In this document: piece after piece, positions 3,730 through 54,039 of the stretch
Position numbering within the stretch: position 1 is the first letter of the stretch
Layout: every line of letters begins with the position of its first letter
DNA from: a virus
Lineage: Duplodnaviria; Caudoviricetes
Direction: 5' to 3' (one strand)
Virus record (IMG/VR): IMGVR_UViG_3300028569_001484
Coordinates: 28,166-92,165 of that record
DNA: 64,000 bases
Translations under genes and position numbers: made by a program
Notes under the pieces: model-generated
What the model was told of the DNA's origin: nothing
Database searches by the model: none
Seen by the model: the letters and a program-made list of their open reading frames with translations, nothing else

Positions 3730-4284
3730 TTATAGGTTCTCCTTCTTTATAATGTTTCCGTTGTTGTCAAAGTCTCCAAAGATACTGGTACAATTTTCTG
3801 GTCCTAATATTTGTTCGATGATATTATGGGTTTGTTTGCTTATTGAAAATAAAGAGTCACAACTTTGATAAAACGGTTTATTCCACATAGGATACGGCAA
3901 ATCATCCCATATTGTTAAATAAGTTAAAGGAATTTTAGAACGAATCTGATTTTCAATATTGTACAACCATCCCCAGAAACGTGGATCTGTAAAGTGCATA
4001 ATTGCATCTGGTTTTTCTAGAGACATGATTTGAAATAGAATTTCTTCATCACCATAACCATCTACAGGATATAATCTGAGATAGTTATCATTTCGTCCAT
4101 TGAGTTTATCAACAGCTTCTTTCATATCAACGATTTTACCTTGTTCAGGGTGTTTAATGGCACCAGCTATTTGCACCCAATCGTAATGCTGTACGGTGCC
4201 TAAGACAAGTTCCCGTGACATTGTTGCGATACCACTATGCATTCTTAGATCGTCGCTCAATAATAATATTTTTTTCTTCTTCAT
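3730..4284 (-). CDS. GT4 glycosyltransferase, N-terminal domain (split from 2757..3728)
   Basis: KILLLSDD...SGIAT, KPDAIMHFTDPR, IWDDLP; 1-nt gap to the C-terminal half. Confidence 0.8.
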   Translation of the reverse strand: MKKKKILLLSDDLRMHSGIATMSRELVLGTVQHYDWVQIAGAIKHPEQGKIVDMKEAVDKLNGRNDNYLRLYPVDGYGDEEILFQIMSLEKPDAIMHFTDPRFWGWLYNIENQIRSKIPLTYLTIWDDLPYPMWNKPFYQSCDSLFSISKQTHNIIEQILGPENCTSIFGDFDNNGNIIKKENL

Positions 4285-4499
4285 TTAGATTCCTTTGTAG
4301 ATAGTTGAAATGGTTGATTATAACTTAATTTTTGACAAACGCTTTCGCTTATTTCTGTTTGAAAATTCGAATCGGTCAAATATCTTTCCAAACACTTATT
4401 TACAAAGTCTTGAAATGATATTCTACCACGAATATTAAGCTCTTTAAATTGATTATATAACTCTTGATTGAGTTTTACTGTAGTAACAACTTGGTCCAT
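4281..4499 (-). CDS. small ribbon-helix-helix-like protein
   Basis: TTVKL beta strand followed by two helices; 72 aa. Confidence 0.5.
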   Translation of the reverse strand: MDQVVTTVKLNQELYNQFKELNIRGRISFQDFVNKCLERYLTDSNFQTEISESVCQKLSYNQPFQLSTKESK

Positions 4500-4542
4500 A
4501 ACATATGTGTATATGTATATATGTACATATGTTCAAAATTAA

Positions 4543-5433
4543 TTATAATTTGGTAGCTTTACCATCACACAGTTTTTTGTAATGGGTACAATACTTACAG
4601 TGTTTCTTACCGTTGCCAGGAACTTTAATATATTGATTGGTTTCGTTGTAGTTTCCTTCTGGGGTAAATCCATAATCCAAAAACTCAACAAATGATTTAA
4701 TCGATTCTTTGATAATAGTTGGGCCAGTAGAGGGTTTAAATACTTGAATTCTGCTTTGTGGAAAGCTTACATTTTCATAAAGTTTACGTTTTACGATAAA
4801 AAACTCCACTTCGATATTATTGAGTGGTACGTTAAACATTTTACTGTATACAGATTTGTATAGATGTAACTGTGCAAGTTTGCTTACATCTTCTTTCATA
4901 TAACTGTTCCAACCACTACTAGATGTCTTGAAGTCAATAATACGATAATATTCTTTATCTTTTTCTTTTAAAACAATGTCAATAAATCCTACAAACTCCA
5001 CGTTATTTTTAATGGGTATTTCTAGTGGAATTTCGATACCAACCAATTCATAGTCTTTGGTAGAGAAGTATTTGAGTCTATTAGCAGATTTACAGAATGT
5101 ATCTATAATATCATTACCATCAAAAATGAAGTCGGTAAATTCTTCTTCTTTTACATCTTTTACCTTTTTGATTTGCTCATTAAACTTATCTAAGAATAAC
5201 TTCTTTACATCCAACGAGTCTGCAATACCTACCCCTTCCTTATATAAGGATGTAAGATATGTTTGAAATGCATGATGAATGGCAGTTCCAAACGTGGTAT
5301 TAATATTATCATCCTTAACCCGAAGATTCTTAACATAATCTAAATGCCATTTATTTGGACATTTTAGGTAGGTAGCGTACTGACTAAAGCTAACTCTCTT
5401 CTTTTTTATTTCTTTATTATTAATTTCTTCCAT
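4543..5433 (-). CDS. PD-(D/E)XK RecB/Cas4-like nuclease
   Basis: SFSQ..CP, FGTAIH, GFIDIV, IIDFKTS, QLHLY, C-terminal CKYC...C. Confidence 0.85.
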   Translation of the reverse strand: MEEINNKEIKKKRVSFSQYATYLKCPNKWHLDYVKNLRVKDDNINTTFGTAIHHAFQTYLTSLYKEGVGIADSLDVKKLFLDKFNEQIKKVKDVKEEEFTDFIFDGNDIIDTFCKSANRLKYFSTKDYELVGIEIPLEIPIKNNVEFVGFIDIVLKEKDKEYYRIIDFKTSSSGWNSYMKEDVSKLAQLHLYKSVYSKMFNVPLNNIEVEFFIVKRKLYENVSFPQSRIQVFKPSTGPTIIKESIKSFVEFLDYGFTPEGNYNETNQYIKVPGNGKKHCKYCTHYKKLCDGKATKL

Positions 5434-5485
5434 TAGATTATTTTATATCAAATTTATTTAGTAGTCAATCTATAAAAACTATATA

Positions 5486-6223
5486 TTGTATATGAAGAAA
5501 TTTATAACTATTCTGTTGACAGCACTTAATCTATACGCAAACGATCTTTATCTATATGATAAGAATAATGACGTAGAATTAACCGAGGTAATTAATAATA
5601 AATTAAACGTATTACCCACTATTATTGGTAAAACATACACTCTTACCAACAGTCTTAATATAAACACAACCAACTCTAGTGTATCATATATAGTACCATA
5701 TCGTATTGCATTGTTGCAGAAAGAAAATACTTCTACATACTTCAATCAAACAAGTACTGAATATGTAAATGACTTTAAATTGCCAGAAGTGGTTAAAGTA
5801 AAAGACGCAATGTTTAACTTTACTGTTAATGGAGAACTATATTGTGTTAGTGAAAGTACCAATCTAAATACATTACTTACTACGTTATGTAGTGTAACAT
5901 TTGGTCAATCCACATTCTTTATTAAATCCAATGAAAAGTTTACTCACGTATATGTAATGAGTGGTAATGTAACCGTATTGGATAATAAGTCTAAGAAGAA
6001 GAAAGAATTAAAATCAGGCGACTATTTGGTAGTTACCCCACAGATTGTTATGAGTGCTAGAGAAGCTAGTGTTACTAAGTTGGGTAATAGTTTTAGTGTT
6101 AAGGAAGTAGAGGATGAAGAAAAAGAAGTACACTCTAAAGAATCGACTACATTAAAATCTAAGTTGGATAATACTTTATTTGTAAACTACGGACAAAATA
6201 TTTTTGGTTTTAAATTAAAATGA
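5486..6223 (+). CDS. secreted-type protein with weak FecR-like beta domain
   Basis: Signal-peptide-like MKKFITILLTALNLYA; VYVMSGNVTV...LKSGD resembles FecR. Confidence 0.45.
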   Translation: MYMKKFITILLTALNLYANDLYLYDKNNDVELTEVINNKLNVLPTIIGKTYTLTNSLNINTTNSSVSYIVPYRIALLQKENTSTYFNQTSTEYVNDFKLPEVVKVKDAMFNFTVNGELYCVSESTNLNTLLTTLCSVTFGQSTFFIKSNEKFTHVYVMSGNVTVLDNKSKKKKELKSGDYLVVTPQIVMSAREASVTKLGNSFSVKEVEDEEKEVHSKESTTLKSKLDNTLFVNYGQNIFGFKLK

Positions 6224-6447
6224 AATTAGATCATCTAGAGTCTCTCACAGAAGACGAATTAGCAATGTTATGGTTCTGTATTAATAAAATTAATCCGCCT
6301 GTATTAAGTGGCGAAGAACTTGAACCGTGTTTATTTGTTTCAATTAAACATAAACGGTTGATGGATAGAATATTACAATGTGCGCAACACGTAAAAGAAG
6401 AACATCACGCAGTTTTCACTGGACTTGTTGCTAAATTGAAGGTATAG
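6220..6447 (+). CDS. hypothetical protein
   Basis: ATGA-coupled ORF, 75 aa. Confidence 0.6.
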   Translation: MKLDHLESLTEDELAMLWFCINKINPPVLSGEELEPCLFVSIKHKRLMDRILQCAQHVKEEHHAVFTGLVAKLKV

Positions 6448-6453
6448 TAGAAA

Positions 6454-6474
6454 TTTCCAACGTTTTTTCCAACG
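6454..6474 (+). repeat. direct repeat TTTCCAACG x2 (putative operator, cassette 1)
   Basis: 6454-6462 and 6466-6474, directly before TATTTAT (6481) and the leader ATG (6495). Confidence 0.6.
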
Positions 6475-6494
6475 ATTTACTATTTATTAATGTT

Positions 6495-6650
6495 ATGGGT
6501 AGAAAGAAATTAAATAGAACACCAGATGAAATACGAGAACAAAATAGAAAACGATACGAACGATTCTACAGAAAAAATTGTAACAGAATCAGAAAAGAAA
6601 AACTTGAACGATATCACAACAAAGTGGACAAGACATTGCCCGAAATGTAA
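6495..6650 (+). CDS. MGRKK basic leader micro-protein (cassette 1)
   Basis: MGRKKLNRTPDEIREQNRKRYERFYRKNCNRIRKEKLERYHNKVDKTLPEM; homologous to five other leaders in the window. Confidence 0.75.
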   Translation: MGRKKLNRTPDEIREQNRKRYERFYRKNCNRIRKEKLERYHNKVDKTLPEM

Positions 6651-7429
6651 TAAGGAAATAATCTATAAAGATAAATATAACTGTTCTTATGCATCGTTAA
6701 AAAATACAAATTGTATGTCATGCAATGCTACAGGCAAAAAACACAGCGTGGAAACTATTGAAAAAATTAAAAATAAAAATATAAATAAAAAAGTATCTTT
6801 TGAAACCAGAGAAAAATTGTCAAAAATAAATACTGGAAAAAAATTATCGAATAACACTAGATTAAAAATAAAATCATCTTTAATAGGCAATAAAAGAATG
6901 CTTGGAAAACACCATACTACTAATACCAAACAAAAAATTTCTACGTCATTAAAAGGAAAAATGTGTGGGATTAAGAATCCGAGATATGGCAAAGTTGGAA
7001 CAAATAAAGGAAAAAAGTTTTCTTTAGAAACCAGACGGAAAATATCACAATCTCGTATGGGTAAAAAAGCATCGGAAGAAACAAAGAGAAAAATTCAGAG
7101 AATTGTTCTTAAAAAGAAAGTTAAAATCCGGAAGCATATTTTTTCCAGCATATAATGAAACCGCATGTTTGTATTTTGATTGGTTGAATAAATGGATGGG
7201 TTGGAAAGGTCGGTTTGCAACGAACGGTGGCGAATTTCAAATAGGCAATTATTTCGTTGATTATTACGAACCGGAATTAAATATTGTTATTGAATATGAT
7301 GAAAAACATCATTTTAAAGGGGGGGAACTAAAAGAAAAAGATGTTTTAAGAATGGAATACATTAAAAAAACTTTACATTGCAGGTTTTTCAGATATACTG
7401 AGAGTAACAATGTAATCTTAGAGTACTAA
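6526..7429 (+). CDS. NUMOD3-repeat + Vsr/DUF559-like homing endonuclease, frameshifted near 7089-7093
   Basis: CPKC...CMSC, repeated S.ETR.KIS motifs; ORF 7103..7429 has YFVDYY..IVIEYDEKHH; removing one A joins the two ORFs. Confidence 0.75.
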
Positions 7430-47215: not shown

Positions 47216-47327
47216 CAATCTCAAATCAAAAATCGCAAGTAAAAATTTACAACTAACAGATCTATACGCAGAATATTACTATAAGGCTGCTATCAAGCAG
47301 ACAGTAGGTCAACAACCCCTAGGCTAA
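47184..47327 (+). CDS. small protein whose 3' end is interrupted by the TnpB element
   Basis: MKTKTTQ...AAIKQTV; removing 47308..48636 restores QTVDERHYTQAVGT*. Confidence 0.5.
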   Translation: MKTKTTQTVINNLKSKIASKNLQLTDLYAEYYYKAAIKQTVGQQPLG

Positions 47328-48636
47328 AGCCATAGGGGCTTGTAATGCTATTGCTTTCACAACAGGCTTACATACGATTGGCTGGTTGACAACAGCCTGC
47401 CCATCAAGTATGTTACCATACGAAACGGGAAGTTTGGAACGATTACCTATGTTCCGTGATGCGTTTAGGTCCGCATCATATACAATTCCACTCACAGCAT
47501 AAAACCTACAACCTCTACGAACCCCCTCTTTGATGCCGCTAAAGCTATCAATTTGGGAAGTATAAGCAGGGCTAACAAGAATTATGGATTTACCCATATT
47601 TTCTGCCTTATAAGTTAATATGCGTCTTAATTCAAATAATGGAACTTGACTTATTGCTCTTTTGTTTTGAAATTTGTGTTTTTTTGCTTTGATGCCTTTT
47701 AAGTTTTCAAGCACAATAGTGTCTGCATTTGTTTGAAGAATTATATTGGCGACACAATGGGTTTGGTTTCTATTTTTATTAGCTTCTTTATGACGAAGTT
47801 TACGAAGATGTCTTCTTGCACTTTTTGAACCATTTGATTTGAGACTATCTTTTAGATGACGAAGTTTTCGTTTATCTCCATTGAATTTTCTATCAATAAC
47901 TATTCTACCATCACTACAAGCAGCTACTCTACGCATTCCTAAATCAACTCCCAGTGCTAATTTTGATTTTTGTTTATCAATCTTATTATCAAACGATAGA
48001 GCAATGTAGATTTTGTCATTATTAATATAAATCAGAGGATCTACATATTTGTATTTGTTTAGTAATTCTACAAGTTTGGGGTATAGTTTGAACTTAAAGT
48101 TCTTTTTACCAGATGATGTAGTAATCTTTATAGATTCTTTTGTTGGAAAACTATATAGTCTTTTATCTAAACGAATTGATAGATTCTTTTTTTCAATTGG
48201 TTTCTTTATCTTGTGTTTATTTGATTTGGCACTTCTATAAGACGCTAGACATTCTTGTTCTGCTTTTATAACGACTTGTGAATTTACATCTGGAAATTGT
48301 TTTCTTACATTATAATAAACTTTTGAGTGAAGAATTACTATTGAATTCTTTTTCTCATTGAATTGTTCTTTTGAAGCAATGTTGAAAACAACACGATGAC
48401 TTTCAAGAAGAGATTTGAGAGATTCTAAATCATCTTGGTTATCTGTTAATAATTCTGTGTTATAAGTTATCACTTCTATAATATATATATACTGGATTTT
48501 CAAAAAGTTGAAAAATTTATAAAAAAATGATTTTGGAGAAAACATTTGACAAACCTAAGAGATTGATGTAAAGTAGTTGAATGGTCGGAATTCCTCCCCT
48601 TGGCTAAAGCCGAAGGGGTTTCCTTCCTCCAAAAAT
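47308..48636 (-). mobile_element. non-autonomous IS200/IS605-family element (tnpB only)
   Basis: Left-end hairpin CCCCTTCGGCTTTAGCCAAGGGG after TTCAT; right-end hairpin CCCCTATGGCTTTAGCCTAGGGG ending GTTGAC; no tnpA. Confidence 0.85.
47319..48473 (-). CDS. tnpB: TnpB RNA-guided nuclease, zinc finger degenerate
   Basis: RuvC-I LGVDLG, RuvC-II IVLENL, PAYTSQ, RuvC-III DADLNASRNI; GTG start. Confidence 0.88.
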   Translation of the reverse strand: MITYNTELLTDNQDDLESLKSLLESHRVVFNIASKEQFNEKKNSIVILHSKVYYNVRKQFPDVNSQVVIKAEQECLASYRSAKSNKHKIKKPIEKKNLSIRLDKRLYSFPTKESIKITTSSGKKNFKFKLYPKLVELLNKYKYVDPLIYINNDKIYIALSFDNKIDKQKSKLALGVDLGMRRVAACSDGRIVIDRKFNGDKRKLRHLKDSLKSNGSKSARRHLRKLRHKEANKNRNQTHCVANIILQTNADTIVLENLKGIKAKKHKFQNKRAISQVPLFELRRILTYKAENMGKSIILVSPAYTSQIDSFSGIKEGVRRGCRFYAVSGIVYDADLNASRNIGNRSKLPVSYGNILDGQAVVNQPIVCKPVVKAIALQAPMALA

Positions 48637-48924
48637 ATGAAAGACACTACACTCAAGCAGTTGGTACGTGACCGCAAGGGTCAACCCCGTGGTATGGTTG
48701 TTGCCACAGTAATTGATGGTACTATCCGATTTGGTTGGAGTCATACCAATACAAAGGCAGGTGATCGTTTTGATAAGTGCAAGGCACTCACTATTGCTCT
48801 AGGTCGAGCTGAAAATGGTTGGGGTCCAAAAACAAATGTACCTATATCTACAGCCAAGATTCTAAATAAGATGGTTGATCGATCCGTTCGCTATTACAAG
48901 AATGTTCCCATCTACGTTATTTAA
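48637..48924 (+). CDS. conserved phage hypothetical protein
   Basis: GWS......D.FDK..AL.IALGRA. Confidence 0.7.
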   Translation: MKDTTLKQLVRDRKGQPRGMVVATVIDGTIRFGWSHTNTKAGDRFDKCKALTIALGRAENGWGPKTNVPISTAKILNKMVDRSVRYYKNVPIYVI

Positions 48925-48941
48925 TTCGACTATTTATAAAA

Positions 48942-49274
48942 ATGGACAAGTACATTACCGATAATTTCACCGGGTCAATTGACGATCTACTAAATCATTG
49001 TTCCAATCTAGATACAGCAAAAGTAGAAGAACAAGTCAAAGCTGAAGAAAAAGAAGCCTGTATTCAAGTAATTATGAAAGAACTTGAATGTGATGAAGCT
49101 GAAGCTGAAGTCATTTATAATGAAATTGCTTTGGCAGAAGTTAAAGAAACAGTTGACAAGATGGTAGCAGAGGGTCTATTATATGTATCTGGTCACAACG
49201 AAGATGGCGAACCACTGTTTCAGCTAACTGAACTTGGTAAATCAGTTCGTAAAGAACTAGGCGACGGTAAGTAA
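48942..49274 (+). CDS. hypothetical protein (winged-helix-like C-terminus)
   Basis: MVAEGLL...FQLTELG. Confidence 0.6.
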   Translation: MDKYITDNFTGSIDDLLNHCSNLDTAKVEEQVKAEEKEACIQVIMKELECDEAEAEVIYNEIALAEVKETVDKMVAEGLLYVSGHNEDGEPLFQLTELGKSVRKELGDGK

Positions 49275-49286
49275 TTATACCATAAT

Positions 49287-49367
49287 GCTCCGGTACTGGC
49301 GGGGTCTTCTAAGCCCTAAGTGCATAATTGGATGAAAATGGGGGTTCAAGTCCCTCCCGGAGCGCCA
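49287..49367 (+). tRNA. atypical tRNA-Arg(TCT) with no normal D-arm and a D-loop-like hairpin 3' of the anticodon arm
   Basis: GCTCCGG/CCGGAGC acceptor, G discriminator, CCA, loop CTTCTAA, T-arm GGGGG-TTCAAGT-CCCTC. Confidence 0.7.
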
Positions 49368-49428
49368 TTTTTGATCATATTCATAAATTTGTATATATTT
49401 ATATGTTCAAACTTCTCTTAAAAAGAAG

Positions 49429-49456
49429 TTGATCTTTGAAAACTTAGTGGTAAGAT
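49429..49456 (+). promoter_or_regulatory. sigma70-type promoter
   Basis: TTGATC-N16-TAAGAT (TGG-extended). Confidence 0.6.
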
Positions 49457-49466
49457 AAAGAAGTAG

Positions 49467-49583
49467 TAAGTATTTCGTTCTTTCAGCGTGGTGGGAGAAG
49501 CACTCCTCTAGAACATCTTTGTATGGTGGAACTGCCTTGGCCTTTAACCAAAGGGGGTCACCGACGAAAGAATGAAATACTTA
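49467..49583 (+). ncRNA. unassigned multi-branched small RNA
   Basis: Long closing helix TAAGTATTTCGTTCTTTC/GAAAGAATGAAATACTTA enclosing three hairpins; own promoter. Confidence 0.55.
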
Positions 49584-49584
49584 G

Positions 49585-49643
49585 TTGACAAAAAAAGAAA
49601 ATGTGGTAAGATGAATAAGTAGTAAGTAATAGTTCTTTAAAAT
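49585..49643 (+). promoter_or_regulatory. rRNA-like promoter plus boxA
   Basis: TTGACA-N16-TAAGAT then AGTTCTTTAAAA. Confidence 0.7.
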
Positions 49644-49697
49644 AAAAATAGTAGACTGAAAGATTACTAATCATTTGCTCTATATGTTTGATATATA

Positions 49698-50168
49698 TTG
49701 TATATGAAACATAGTAAACAAAAAGGAAATTTAGGATTCTCATCAACTCTCAAAGAGTTACATAAACTCGGATACAATGTATTTACTGAAGCAGGAGATA
49801 ACTCTAAAGTAGATATGATAGTTGAAGTGAAAAATCATTTGGTAAAAATACAAATTAAGTATATTACTGATACAAATGGACAAGTAACTTTAAACTTACA
49901 AAAAAGTGGTCCAAATGGATATAGGTACAAATATTCAGAATCTGATATAGATTTATTTAGTGTATATTTACCTACTTTAGATAAAGTAATTTTTATACCT
50001 GCTAAATTAGCTTGTAAAAATACAAGAACTTTTAGTATTAGATTTAATGAAAGTAAAAATAATCAAGATAAACACATTAATTATATAAGTGAATTTGAAG
50101 ATTTAGATAAAATTTTAAATAATTTGGTTAGTTCTTTAACAAATTTTAATGGGATCGTAGCTCAATAG
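49698..50168 (+). CDS. PD-(D/E)XK homing endonuclease (group I intron-associated type)
   Basis: KG.LG, GYNVF...D..KVDMIVE, IQIKY, Y...DIDLFSVY; stop lies inside tRNA-Lys. Confidence 0.8.
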   Translation: MYMKHSKQKGNLGFSSTLKELHKLGYNVFTEAGDNSKVDMIVEVKNHLVKIQIKYITDTNGQVTLNLQKSGPNGYRYKYSESDIDLFSVYLPTLDKVIFIPAKLACKNTRTFSIRFNESKNNQDKHINYISEFEDLDKILNNLVSSLTNFNGIVAQ

Positions 50169-50226
50169 GTAGAGCAGTTCGCTTTTAACGAATTGGTTGA
50201 CGGTTCAAGTCCGTCCGGTCCCACCA
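50151..50226 (+). tRNA. tRNA-Lys(TTT)
   Basis: Cloverleaf, loop CTTTTAA, GGTTCAAGTCC, CCA. Confidence 0.93.
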
Positions 50227-50233
50227 TTTTAAT

Positions 50234-50308
50234 GTCCCATTAGATTATCAGCTAAATCACTGGACTTTCACTCCGGAAAAAACGGGGCAGCACCGTTATG
50301 GGATACCA
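50234..50308 (+). tRNA. tRNA-Glu(TTC), non-canonical T-loop
   Basis: Loop CTTTCAC, T-loop GCAGCA, CCA. Confidence 0.8.
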
Positions 50309-50596
50309 TTTTGTACGTACAGACATATGTGAGTGTAGGACACTTTAAATAAGGCAAAACACATTAAGTGCATGTACTTAATATAAAGTAGCAGCATATG
50401 AAATTTTATGTTTGGTTGTTTCACGAGGAAAAACAACTTGGTGGAGGGTACATAACCAAAATGCCCCTAGAGTTGGAAGTTCTCTTAAAAAACTTCTTGG
50501 TTGCGGGGTTAGAAAGTGGTATACTTTGTTTGTTGGGCGGACAAAGTATTCAATAATTACACCCAACACAATTTTTACGGTTCTTTATAAACAATT

Positions 50597-51796: not shown

Positions 51797-51873
51797 GGTC
51801 CTGTAGCTCAATAGAGCAGAGCAATCAGTTTATAACTGATAGGTTGTGGGTTCGAAGCCCATTGGGACCACCA
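51797..51873 (+). tRNA. tRNA-Ile(TAT)
   Basis: ATCAG-TTTATAA-CTGAT, CCA. Confidence 0.88.
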
Positions 51874-52083: not shown

Positions 52084-52155
52084 TTTATTGTTCATTGAAA
52101 TTTAGTAGACGCAAAGTAATTTGTATTTATGTCTTCCAAAATACTATTTATTAGT

Positions 52156-52818
52156 ATGAAAAAGATAGATATACAGGAATTAAAAATTGCAACAAAAACA
52201 TCTACATCATACGCTGAAGTTTTAAAAAAGTTAAAATTAAAACAAAGCGGATCAATGCAGTCTCGTCTTAAAAAAGAGATTAAAAATCTAGAGTTAGATA
52301 TTAGTCACTTTACAGGACAAGCCTGGTGTAGAGGTAAAAATTCTTATCAAGACAAAAGAATAAGAAACAAATATTCTGATGAAATTATTTTTATTGAAAA
52401 TAGTAATGTTTCAAATATTGTAGTGAAAAATAGATTGAAGTCAAATGCAAATTATGTGCATAGATGTGAATTATGCACAATTAAAGAATGGTATGACCCG
52501 TTTGAAAATAAAATTAAACCAGTGAATTTAGAACTTGACCATATAAATGGTGATGAAAGAGATAACAGAAAAGAAAATTTAAGGTTAATTTGTTCCAATT
52601 GTCATAGTTTTACTCCTACTTATAAAGGAAGAAACATAAACAAACCATTAAGAAATGGAGAAAAGAAAGTAACAGATGATGTTCTTTTAGAACATTTGAA
52701 AACAAAAAATATAAGACAAAGTTTAATTTCAGTGGGAATGTCTGCTTCTGGTGAAAATTATGAAAGATGTAAAATTTTGAAAAAGCAGTTGACATCAGAA
52801 GATAATGTGGTAAGATAA
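52156..52818 (+). CDS. HNH homing endonuclease
   Basis: S.AEVL..L.L, DISHFTG, CELC, LELDHINGD..DNR.ENLRLICSNCHS.T.TY. Confidence 0.88.
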   Translation: MKKIDIQELKIATKTSTSYAEVLKKLKLKQSGSMQSRLKKEIKNLELDISHFTGQAWCRGKNSYQDKRIRNKYSDEIIFIENSNVSNIVVKNRLKSNANYVHRCELCTIKEWYDPFENKIKPVNLELDHINGDERDNRKENLRLICSNCHSFTPTYKGRNINKPLRNGEKKVTDDVLLEHLKTKNIRQSLISVGMSASGENYERCKILKKQLTSEDNVVR

Positions 52819-53435: not shown

Positions 53436-53512
53436 AGTCCGGTAGCTCAATAGAGCAGAGCAATCAGTTTATAACTGATAGGTTGTGGGTTCGAAGCCCA
53501 TCCGGACTACCA
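53436..53512 (+). tRNA. tRNA-Ile(TAT), second copy
   Basis: 60-nt core identical to the 51797 copy, different acceptor stem. Confidence 0.9.
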
Positions 53513-53521
53513 TTTTATAAC

Positions 53522-53635
53522 GGATCAATAGCTCAATTTGGTTAGAGCTGGGAACTCTTTCGCTGCTTATAAACTAAAAGGTATAAGTAGGAAATAATTC
53601 CTCGGTTATCGGTTCAAGTCCGGTTTGATCCACCA
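53522..53635 (+). tRNA. tRNA with 36-nt insertion in the anticodon loop (mature CTT/Lys or CAT)
   Basis: Normal acceptor, D and T arms and CCA; GGGAA/TTCCT stem closes a 43-nt loop containing a hairpin. Confidence 0.75.
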
Positions 53636-53637
53636 TT

Positions 53638-54039
53638 TTAATAAATCTTTAGTCCTAGAGATTTTCTCCCTTTACCTTTATTTTTTGCTCTGCAAGTATC
53701 AAGTTGTGAGTCACAATTAGGACATATCAAACGAAAATTGGAATAAGAATTGTTATTAGCATATCCGTCAATGTGATCTACCCATAACCTTATAGGTTTA
53801 TTATTCCAATTATTTCCGTCTATACCACACAGTGAACATTTATTTCCATAATCTTCACATAACATTGAATATATTAATGGTCTCGTAGGCACTTTTGGAT
53901 AAGAACCATTTCTAATTTGATTTTTAATTGTAGTGGTTTGATAATGTTGTTGACATTTATTACTACAATAAATTCCTTTTGACACAGATGAATGATATGT
54001 AAATATTTTATTGCATGTTTTACAATTTGAATTAATCAT
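53638..54039 (-). CDS. HNH homing endonuclease (cassette 5)
   Basis: CKTC..YCSNKC, CSLCG, LWVDHIDG..NN...NFRLICPNCDSQ. Confidence 0.88.
   Translation of the reverse strand: MINSNCKTCNKIFTYHSSVSKGIYCSNKCQQHYQTTTIKNQIRNGSYPKVPTRPLIYSMLCEDYGNKCSLCGIDGNNWNNKPIRLWVDHIDGYANNNSYSNFRLICPNCDSQLDTCRAKNKGKGRKSLGLKIY

Follow-up and report, generated by a model that had tools for sequence, protein, structure and literature searches.

Introduction

In a textbook tRNA the D and anticodon stems are stacked, the D-loop bases G18 and G19 bind to the T loop, and A20 lies in a pocket that is read by arginyl-tRNA synthetase (ArgRS). Type II tRNAs keep the D arm and carry a variable arm that folds on itself, and in the circularly permuted tRNA genes of Cyanidioschyzon merolae the order of the parts is altered at the level of the gene, processing then restoring a standard tRNA. 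In this work we have analyzed an element at positions 49287-49367 (plus strand) of a 64,000 nucleotide (nt) stretch of phage DNA (IMG/VR record IMGVR_UViG_3300028569_001484, Caudoviricetes), referred to as the window, which resembles a tRNA-Arg(UCU) with a rewired D domain. Among mitochondrial tRNAs (mt-tRNAs) loss of the D-loop and T-loop motifs has been described, with no GG and a degenerate T loop (PMC7609411, PMC9427863). In the D-armless mt-tRNA-Ser(GCU/AGY) there is one Watson-Crick pair together with loose pairs, a remodelled T loop and no tertiary core (PMC9427863). A synthetic tRNA lacking the D arm, termed mini HisT, is accepted by the HisRS, EF-Tu and ribosome of E. coli and is degraded via PNPase (PMC11551756). 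The words phage and virus are absent from a 2020 review of non-canonical tRNAs (PMC7609411), and a full-text literature search, with subscription journals and supplementary tables outside its view, returned no description of a tRNA such as the one analyzed here.

Comparison with its relatives indicates, with a probability that we put at roughly 0.8, that the element functions as a phage tRNA-Arg(UCU) gene, its non-canonical architecture being common to a large family of phage tRNA-Arg genes. An original prediction, made from the letters of the DNA, had proposed an L shape built with a different connectivity of the strands; the rewiring of the D domain and the retention of a D-loop-like GGA hold good, and the helix and the hairpin drawn in that prediction do not.

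Results

Layout of the element

Positions within the element are counted linearly, position 1 being window position 49287. Its parts are as follows.

49287..49293, plus strand: 5' strand of the acceptor stem (positions 1-7), 7/7 Watson-Crick pairs with 49357-49363
49294..49296, plus strand: linker U8 A9 C10, joining the acceptor to the D-stem-like helix
49297..49300, plus strand: UGGC (positions 11-14), descending strand of the D-stem-like helix, pairing with 49320-49324
49301..49317, plus strand: anticodon arm, stem 49301-49305 with 49313-49317, loop CUUCUAA, anticodon UCU at 49308-49310
49318..49319, plus strand: AA bulge (positions 32-33) between the anticodon stem and the D-stem-like helix, in columns that vary
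49320..49324, plus strand: GUGCA (positions 34-38), ascending strand of the D-stem-like helix, G36 bulged
49325..49333, plus strand: UAAUUGGAU (positions 39-47), D-loop-like, with GG and then A (proposed equivalents of G18, G19 and A20)
49334..49339, plus strand: linker GAAAAU leading to the T stem
49340..49356, plus strand: T arm, 5-bp stem with one G.U pair, loop UUCAAGU
49357..49367, plus strand: 3' strand of the acceptor stem (49357-49363), discriminator G (49364) and encoded CCA (49365-49367)

Direct reading of the sequence agrees with the original prediction at every point of the layout, i.e., the 7-bp acceptor, G73, CCA, the T arm, the UCU loop, a 7-nt connector and a 22-nt insert. The anticodon arm, with a stem of five pairs including two G.U and a 7-nt loop with U33 and a purine at 37, is that of a cloverleaf, as is the T arm. 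The D hairpin expected between positions 9 and 26 is absent; just seven nucleotides (UACUGGC) separate the acceptor and anticodon stems, and 22 nt separate the anticodon and T stems.

A family of rewired tRNA genes

Relatives were sought by pattern scans of IMG/VR, metagenome contigs and species genomes and by BLAST against cultured phages, and 322 loci (designated by L numbers) were fetched. The collecting script asked for a 7-nt connector starting with UA, three inner anticodon-stem pairs, a T arm with UUC and A at set T-loop positions, and at least six of seven acceptor pairs; it returned 116 unique sequences and one false match. A first alignment held 52 sequences and a second 70 distinct relatives, and pairs were counted on all 116. 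A covariance model built from 70 of the 116 was searched against the window and the 322 loci (approximately 2.59 Mb), giving 193 top matches, of which 131 were unique; 128 of the latter are members of the family and three are low-scoring canonical tRNAs (the sequences kept for this uniqueness count had E <= 1e-6 or were the top 53 matches, depending on the search batch). The scores were bimodal, with the family at 46.8-96 bits plus one 38-bit member with an 8-nt connector, and canonical tRNAs at 39 bits or less. The window element, itself among the training sequences, scored 88.7 bits.

Judged from these sequences, the family is spread across phages of Actinobacteria and Gammaproteobacteria and of uncultured freshwater hosts. 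When one genome each of 185,579 prokaryote species was scanned, a strict pattern gave no match and a looser one gave six, all on contigs of metagenome-assembled genomes (MAGs), which may be phage, prophage or cellular; these scans covered patterns other than that for members with C at position 11. Three of the six lie inside dense tRNA arrays. One such array, on a 277-kb Chloroflexi MAG contig that is cellular, prophage or a mis-binned jumbo phage (L252), holds 33 ARAGORN tRNAs in about 3.1 kb (3809-6929; 35 in the 8-kb locus), with a rewired tRNA-Arg(UCU) at 5746-5824 between tRNA-Arg(cct) and tRNA-Trp, filling the place of the Arg(UCU) tRNA.

Covariation of the stems and a D-stem-like helix

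Across the 70 relatives all seven acceptor pairs change on both sides, with 98.4% of cells paired, as do all five pairs of the T stem, with 98.9% of cells paired, and the three inner pairs of the anticodon stem (17-29, 18-28, 19-27) covary. The stem covariation score was 0.672 vs 0.195 after shuffling (none of 500 shuffles reached 0.672) and at most 0.146 with the partners slid. While the stems diverge, the connector and the insert are nearly invariant: U8 and A9 occur in 52/52 sequences of the first alignment, most of which were retrieved by a pattern leaving both positions unspecified, and position 10 is C, A or U.

The helix that is conserved, D-stem-like in its place next to the anticodon stem, is U11-A38, G12-C37, G13.U35 and C14-G34, three bases over from the helix of the original prediction. 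In the 70 relatives 11-38 is paired in 70 (U-A 67, C-G 3), 12-37 in 70 (all G-C), 13-35 in 68 (G.U 63, G-C 5, other 2) and 14-34 in 67 (all C-G, other 3). Counting on all 116 sequences, anchored on the base that precedes the D-loop-like motif, gave for 11-38 69 U-A, 47 C-G and no mismatch, and for 12-37 111 G-C, two C-G, two U-A and one A-U; pairs 13 and 14 both form in 93/116, with a bulge of one base in 71, of two in 17 and of none in five. All 39 sequences with the connector UAUCGGC have C37 and G38, in spite of a retrieval pattern that fixed C11 and left everything from the anticodon loop to the T loop free, and the nine U11 sequences retrieved by a 5'-only pattern all have A38. The match between positions 11 and 38 was thus not built in by the searches. 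The same change is seen between close sequences: L258, with a body like that of the window element, has C11 with GCACG at 34-38, hence G38, and keeps all four pairs, and the Streptomyces phages Francob and Mildred21 differ by the same C11/G38 change on a nearly identical acceptor and T arm. In L259:8263 all four pairs are replaced.

Position 15 pairs with 31, 32 or 33 in most relatives; a fixed 15-33 pair was tried and fitted in part (CG 25, AU 5, GU 2 and UA 1 of 52). A hairpin within the insert proposed by RNAalifold (34-47, 35-46, 37-44, 38-43) involves invariant columns only and was rejected because 37 covaries with 12, and 38 with 11.

A D-loop-like motif and arginine identity

Directly after the helix, UAR followed by one or two nucleotides and GG is found in 116/116 sequences, with an A after the GG in 115/116. 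The distance from the GG to the T stem is 5-10 nt in 114/116, the last two bases being AU in 109/116. All T loops listed are UUCGANN or UUCAANN, UUC and A having been demanded by the collecting script. Canonical sister tRNA-Arg genes have GGAUA in their D loops, and GGAU is shared with UAAUUGGAU; together with the conserved GGA this bears out the likeness of the insert to a D loop that had been noted in the original prediction.

Bacterial arginine identity is set by A20, C35, U/G36 and A/G73, A20 being the main determinant for E. coli ArgRS (PMC9976931). The element has no D loop, and the candidate equivalent of A20, by resemblance, is the A after the GG. C35 of the anticodon is present in all members, the discriminator is G or A in 108/116 (G in the window), and CCA is encoded in 67/116. 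The anticodons of the 128 unique members are UCU (107), CCU (8), UCG (4), ACG (4), GCG (3) and CCG (2), that is, Arg only. This also holds for the true members found in a scan with no anticodon in the pattern, and the extra copies met by chance in fetched loci are all Arg isoacceptors; in L283, L259 and L291 three rewired Arg isoacceptors stand in a row. In the same DNA, ARAGORN identified 544 unique canonical tRNAs, 49 for Arg and 495 for other amino acids, and none of these 495 has the rewired form. The confinement of this body to the isotype whose synthetase reads the D loop, together with the exact conservation of GGA, fits charging by ArgRS.

A slot shared with canonical tRNA-Arg(UCU)

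The window has a G+C content of about 31%; besides a tRNA cluster it contains numerous small open reading frames (ORFs), genes resembling homing endonucleases and one resembling TnpB. When the region was compared with cultured phages by megablast and blastn, no close relative of the window phage emerged; related IMG/VR contigs reach 171-173 kb, and the public runs that contain the stretch are mostly lake and freshwater metagenomes. An ORF of 110 amino acids (aa) that stops 13 nt upstream of the element has relatives in 16 IMG/VR loci. In nine of the 16 the rewired element follows directly, with 1-3 substitutions, and in the other seven (L013, L018-L023) the same slot is occupied by a canonical tRNA-Arg(UCU). 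The canonical tRNA was confirmed by ARAGORN in L013, L018, L019 and L022, and the sequences of L020, L021 and L023 match L019 across the tRNA as printed; no family match was found in these seven loci with the covariance model. The cluster order Arg-Lys-Glu-Met-Ile-Leu is preserved among the relatives. A more distant copy, in L006 (a 173-kb contig), has pairs in the acceptor and anticodon stems of which both bases have changed in a compensatory way; all tRNA-model matches on this contig lie inside the cluster and no other tRNA-Arg is among them. Likewise, no other tRNA-Arg was found in the window by ARAGORN or by an Rfam tRNA scan. Judging by sequence, the two-form pattern is repeated in Streptomyces phages, where Annadreamy and Sham have a canonical tRNA-Arg(UCU) with an acceptor and T arm nearly equal to those of the rewired genes of Gilson, Comrade and Mildred21.

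In the window the most used Arg codon is AGA (308 of 561 Arg codons in 64 ORFs). The original prediction had described AGA as abundant in the accessory genes; the abundance is real, and it is spread over all genes and not over the accessory ones alone. The other tRNAs of the cluster likewise match A/U-rich codons.

Detection and annotation

The proposed check of whether ARAGORN misses the element was run, and the program called seven other tRNAs in the window and passed over 49287-49367. A gathering-threshold scan of the whole window with the Rfam tRNA model (RF00005) did not report 49287-49367, and a sensitive scan of 601 nt gave it 31.4 bits against a cut-off of 29, 15 D-arm positions of the model being reduced to 4 nt with 19 nt inserted in the variable region. 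Two relatives scored 29.9 and 27.5 bits. Of the 116 members collected ARAGORN detects one.

In public records members are unannotated, labelled tRNA-Ser or tRNA-OTHER, or overlaid by a hypothetical protein. Rewired members are unannotated in the Streptomyces phages Gilson, Comrade, Bmoc, Angela, Francob and others and in Pseudomonas phage vB_PsaM_M1, and one is annotated tRNA-OTHER in Streptomyces phage Mildred21. In Rhodococcus phage NiceHouse (L132) a member with anticodon ACG lies under a coding sequence for a hypothetical protein, an apparent annotation slip. The members of the Alishewanella phages Slicko01 and Slickus01 are annotated tRNA-Ser, and for the rewired tRNA-Arg(UCU) of Slicko01 (L127, 17417-17495) this label also appears to be a slip. 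Phage tRNA-Arg complements are under-counted, because ARAGORN finds so few members and public records leave them unannotated, mislabel them or overlay them. A separate apparent slip concerns a canonical tRNA with anticodon tct in Streptomyces phage Sham (L135, ON645339, 72227-72300), which is labelled tRNA-Ser(tct).

Other features of the tRNA cluster

Two near-identical UAU tRNA genes, read as Ile, lie at 51797-51873 and 53436-53512 (plus strand), and ATA is frequent in the window ORFs (502/1365 Ile codons). A tRNA-Glu(UUC)-like gene at 50234-50305 (plus strand) scores 40.3 bits with the Rfam tRNA model and is missed by ARAGORN; it has a D loop without GG and a T loop GGCAGCA in place of UUCRA, so that both partners of the elbow contact have changed together, and relatives have an ARAGORN-detectable tRNA-Glu at this position. 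A 111-nt tRNA-model match at 53522-53632 (plus strand; 48.8 bits), not called by ARAGORN, has standard acceptor, D and T arms and about 40 nt inserted, intron-like, in the anticodon loop; in relatives there are calls of 93-94 nt that bear the label tRNA-Ile(tat).

Downstream of the Arg slot, and conserved there in relatives, a structured RNA candidate at 49440-49625 (plus strand) is flanked by two promoter-like TTGAAA/TTGACA...TAAGAT repeats. An 18-bp closing stem surrounds several hairpins (minimum free energy, MFE, -43.9 kcal/mol; z = -3.26), with no match in Rfam. One metatranscriptome contig spans 49449-49627, over this candidate. Among the assembled contigs of four metatranscriptome runs on window positions 48900-50320, the neighbouring segments 48950-49172, 49449-49627 and 50023-50235 are covered and 49287-49367 is not, which is uninformative either way because these are assembled contigs from libraries that did not target tRNA.

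About 740 nt upstream of the cluster, on the opposite strand, lies a TnpB-like ORF of 408 aa (47319-48545, minus strand) with a Cas12f1-like TNB domain and with OrfB_IS605 and PHROG transposase assignments. A PD-(D/E)XK endonuclease ORF (49698-50168, plus strand), which shares 18 nt with the start of tRNA-Lys, and two ORFs for HNH endonucleases (52129-52818, plus strand; 53638-54039, minus strand) are found amid the tRNA genes, and the distance from the Arg slot to tRNA-Lys differs by about 800 nt among relatives.

Discussion

Mode of folding proposed for the element

UGGC (11-14) pairs across the anticodon arm with G34, U35, C37 and A38, and the anticodon stem is thereby prolonged by a 4-bp helix. 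In the proposed structure this helix would take the place of the D stem normally stacked there. The strand leaving this helix, UAAUUGGAU, would act as a D loop that does not return to a stem. Its GG would form the elbow by docking on the T loop, which is unchanged, the A that follows would serve ArgRS as the A20 identity base, and a short A-rich linker ending in AU would lead into the T stem. The outcome would be an L shape in which the strands of the D domain are connected in a different order. Such an RNA is predicted to be charged with arginine, to read AGA, and to replace the canonical tRNA-Arg(UCU) found in the same slot of sister phages; a decoding tRNA that substitutes for the canonical one is the best reading because AGA is the main Arg codon and the cluster matches A/U-rich codons. 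The substitute D domain may matter for stability, since the synthetic tRNA lacking the D arm is degraded through PNPase.

Several observations weigh against this proposal. The invariance of the connector and insert was partly imposed by the search patterns, most sequences having been retrieved with patterns that fixed part of the conserved segments, and the U11/A38 and C11/G38 forms may reflect few evolutionary switches. Of pairs 13 and 14 one alone forms in 22/116 sequences and neither in 1/116, the discriminator is U or C in 8/116, both outer pairs of the anticodon stem are non-standard in 31 of 69 U11-type members, and the closest relatives of the window element, L001 and L044, carry A.G at the loop-closing pair. 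In the window sequence the D-stem-like helix is unfavoured by energy (-24.3 vs -25.3 kcal/mol for the core cloverleaf), the MFE structure (-29.3 kcal/mol) is not a cloverleaf, and the fold z-score against shuffles is -1.0. Nine stacked pairs plus bulges would stand in for ten standard layers, leaving the distance from anticodon to elbow uncertain. Finally, the contact of GG with the T loop and the equivalence of A46 to A20 are both argued from resemblance.

Alternative explanations

An alternative that we regard as unlikely is a functional tRNA-Arg with no L-shaped core, in which the helix lengthens the anticodon arm and the UAA..GGA segment is a protein-recognition tag held off the T loop. 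There is a precedent in human mt-tRNA-Ser(GCU), where the D-replacement loop, stacked on the anticodon stem, pairs with the variable (V) loop and a tertiary core is absent (PMC9427863), and the contact of GG with the T loop lies beyond the reach of covariation, both sides being invariant. The listed T loops nevertheless keep UUCRA, in contrast to the remodelled T loop of the mitochondrial case (PMC9427863); this argument is weaker than it appears because the collecting script kept only T loops with UUC and A. The GG is, moreover, kept where the connector has lost its own GG (L259:8263, L283:2190).

We give little credence to the view that a tRNA-shaped RNA is made that does not decode and acts instead on ArgRS, as its regulator or competitor, or as a decoy or sponge for a tRNA-Arg nuclease. 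A role of phage tRNAs against tRNA-cleaving defences has been put forward (PMC10264068), the outer pairs of the anticodon stem are often non-standard, and the body is unlike normal ribosome substrates. Six Arg anticodons nonetheless occur, each in a well-formed loop of seven nucleotides that has U33 and a purine at 37, and rows of three rewired isoacceptors are what is expected of a decoding set. The rewired gene replaces a canonical tRNA-Arg(UCU) in its slot and is the sole tRNA-Arg of some contigs, CCA is encoded in more than half of the members, and a synthetic tRNA lacking the D arm functions in E. coli translation (PMC11551756).

The exact fold of the original prediction, with UACU (8-11) paired to AGUG (33-36) and a CAU/AUG hairpin presenting an AAUUGG loop, is very improbable. 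It can form in the window sequence, where its energy is slightly better than that of the D-stem-like helix (-26.7 kcal/mol for the helix and -27.2 with the hairpin vs -24.3), and almost every relative could form U8.G36 and A9-U35; thermodynamic folding, it should be noted, cannot decide between the helix registers. In the 70 relatives, on the other hand, 10-34 is unpaired in 36 and 11-33 in 20, no pair changes on both sides, and even close relatives have A10. A C at position 35 in six sequences breaks A9-U35 and improves the pair of G13 with position 35, while the partners with which 37 and 38 covary are 12 and 11. As for the hairpin, its C-G pair has the 3' G in just 18 of 70 sequences, and forms in 11 and is broken in seven of these.

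That the element is a decaying pseudo-tRNA which has lost its D arm, gained junk in the variable region and has no function is scarcely credible: the ARAGORN miss, the Rfam score just at threshold, the z-score and mismatches in relatives (a U.U in the T stem of L006, the loop-closing A.G of L001 and L044) would suit it, and against it stand 128 unique relatives in very different phages with compensatory stem changes and a covarying extra helix, which clearly contradict the lack of such homologs that the original prediction had named as grounds for refutation, a connector and insert that stay nearly invariant beside diverging stems, and the status of the element as sole tRNA-Arg on the 173-kb contig of L006.

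Implications

A decoding tRNA of the proposed architecture would offer a second, evolved way to build the tRNA core, limited to one amino acid, and would bear on how ArgRS reads A20, on what the ribosome and EF-Tu need of a D domain, and on why phages carry tRNAs. It is possible, if rather doubtful, that the re-threaded Arg body is accepted by ArgRS, EF-Tu and the ribosome and yet escapes recognition by a tRNA-cleaving host defence, or by a phage nuclease directed against host tRNA-Arg. Escape from tRNA-directed nucleases, a hypothesis already raised in the original prediction, would be an attractive reason for phages to keep such a body. Should this be true, translation of AGA and CGN codons would be under phage control during infection.

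Comparison with known tRNAs

With canonical tRNA-Arg(UCU) (RF00005; L013, L019, L022, Annadreamy) the rewired form shares the 7-bp acceptor, the standard T arm, the loop CUUCUAA, an A/G discriminator, GGAU, the slot and the cluster order. It differs in having no D hairpin at 9-26, in a helix made from the flanks of the anticodon arm, and in the D-loop-like sequence 3' of that arm.

Type II tRNAs (Leu, Ser and bacterial Tyr) similarly have about 20 extra nucleotides between the anticodon and T arms, and one family member has been labelled tRNA-Ser by GenBank annotators. In the family, however, the D arm is absent, a self-hairpin of the insert is not conserved, and the insert pairs with the 5' connector. 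The likeness to the permuted tRNA genes of C. merolae lies in the order of the parts; here the mature phage RNA itself would have the changed connectivity. Mini HisT is an artificial molecule with neither a replacement helix nor a mimic of the D loop, and it depended on a pnp mutation to avoid degradation (PMC11551756), whereas the phage family is natural and keeps what appears to be a substitute D domain.

The closest known principle is the pairing of the D-replacement loop with the V loop in human mt-tRNA-Ser(GCU) (PMC9427863). As in the D-armless mt-tRNA-Ser(GCU/AGY), a short linker takes the place of the D arm and is paired with the variable region; the mitochondrial linker also stacks on the anticodon stem (PMC9427863), a stacking that for the phage element is proposed. 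The loss of motifs seen in mitochondria is not shared, GG being present in 116/116 members together with a standard T loop. The phage family differs further by a covarying helix of up to four base pairs, a conserved GGA and a restriction to Arg, and the rewired tRNAs would be a natural case that works with the bacterial translation machinery.

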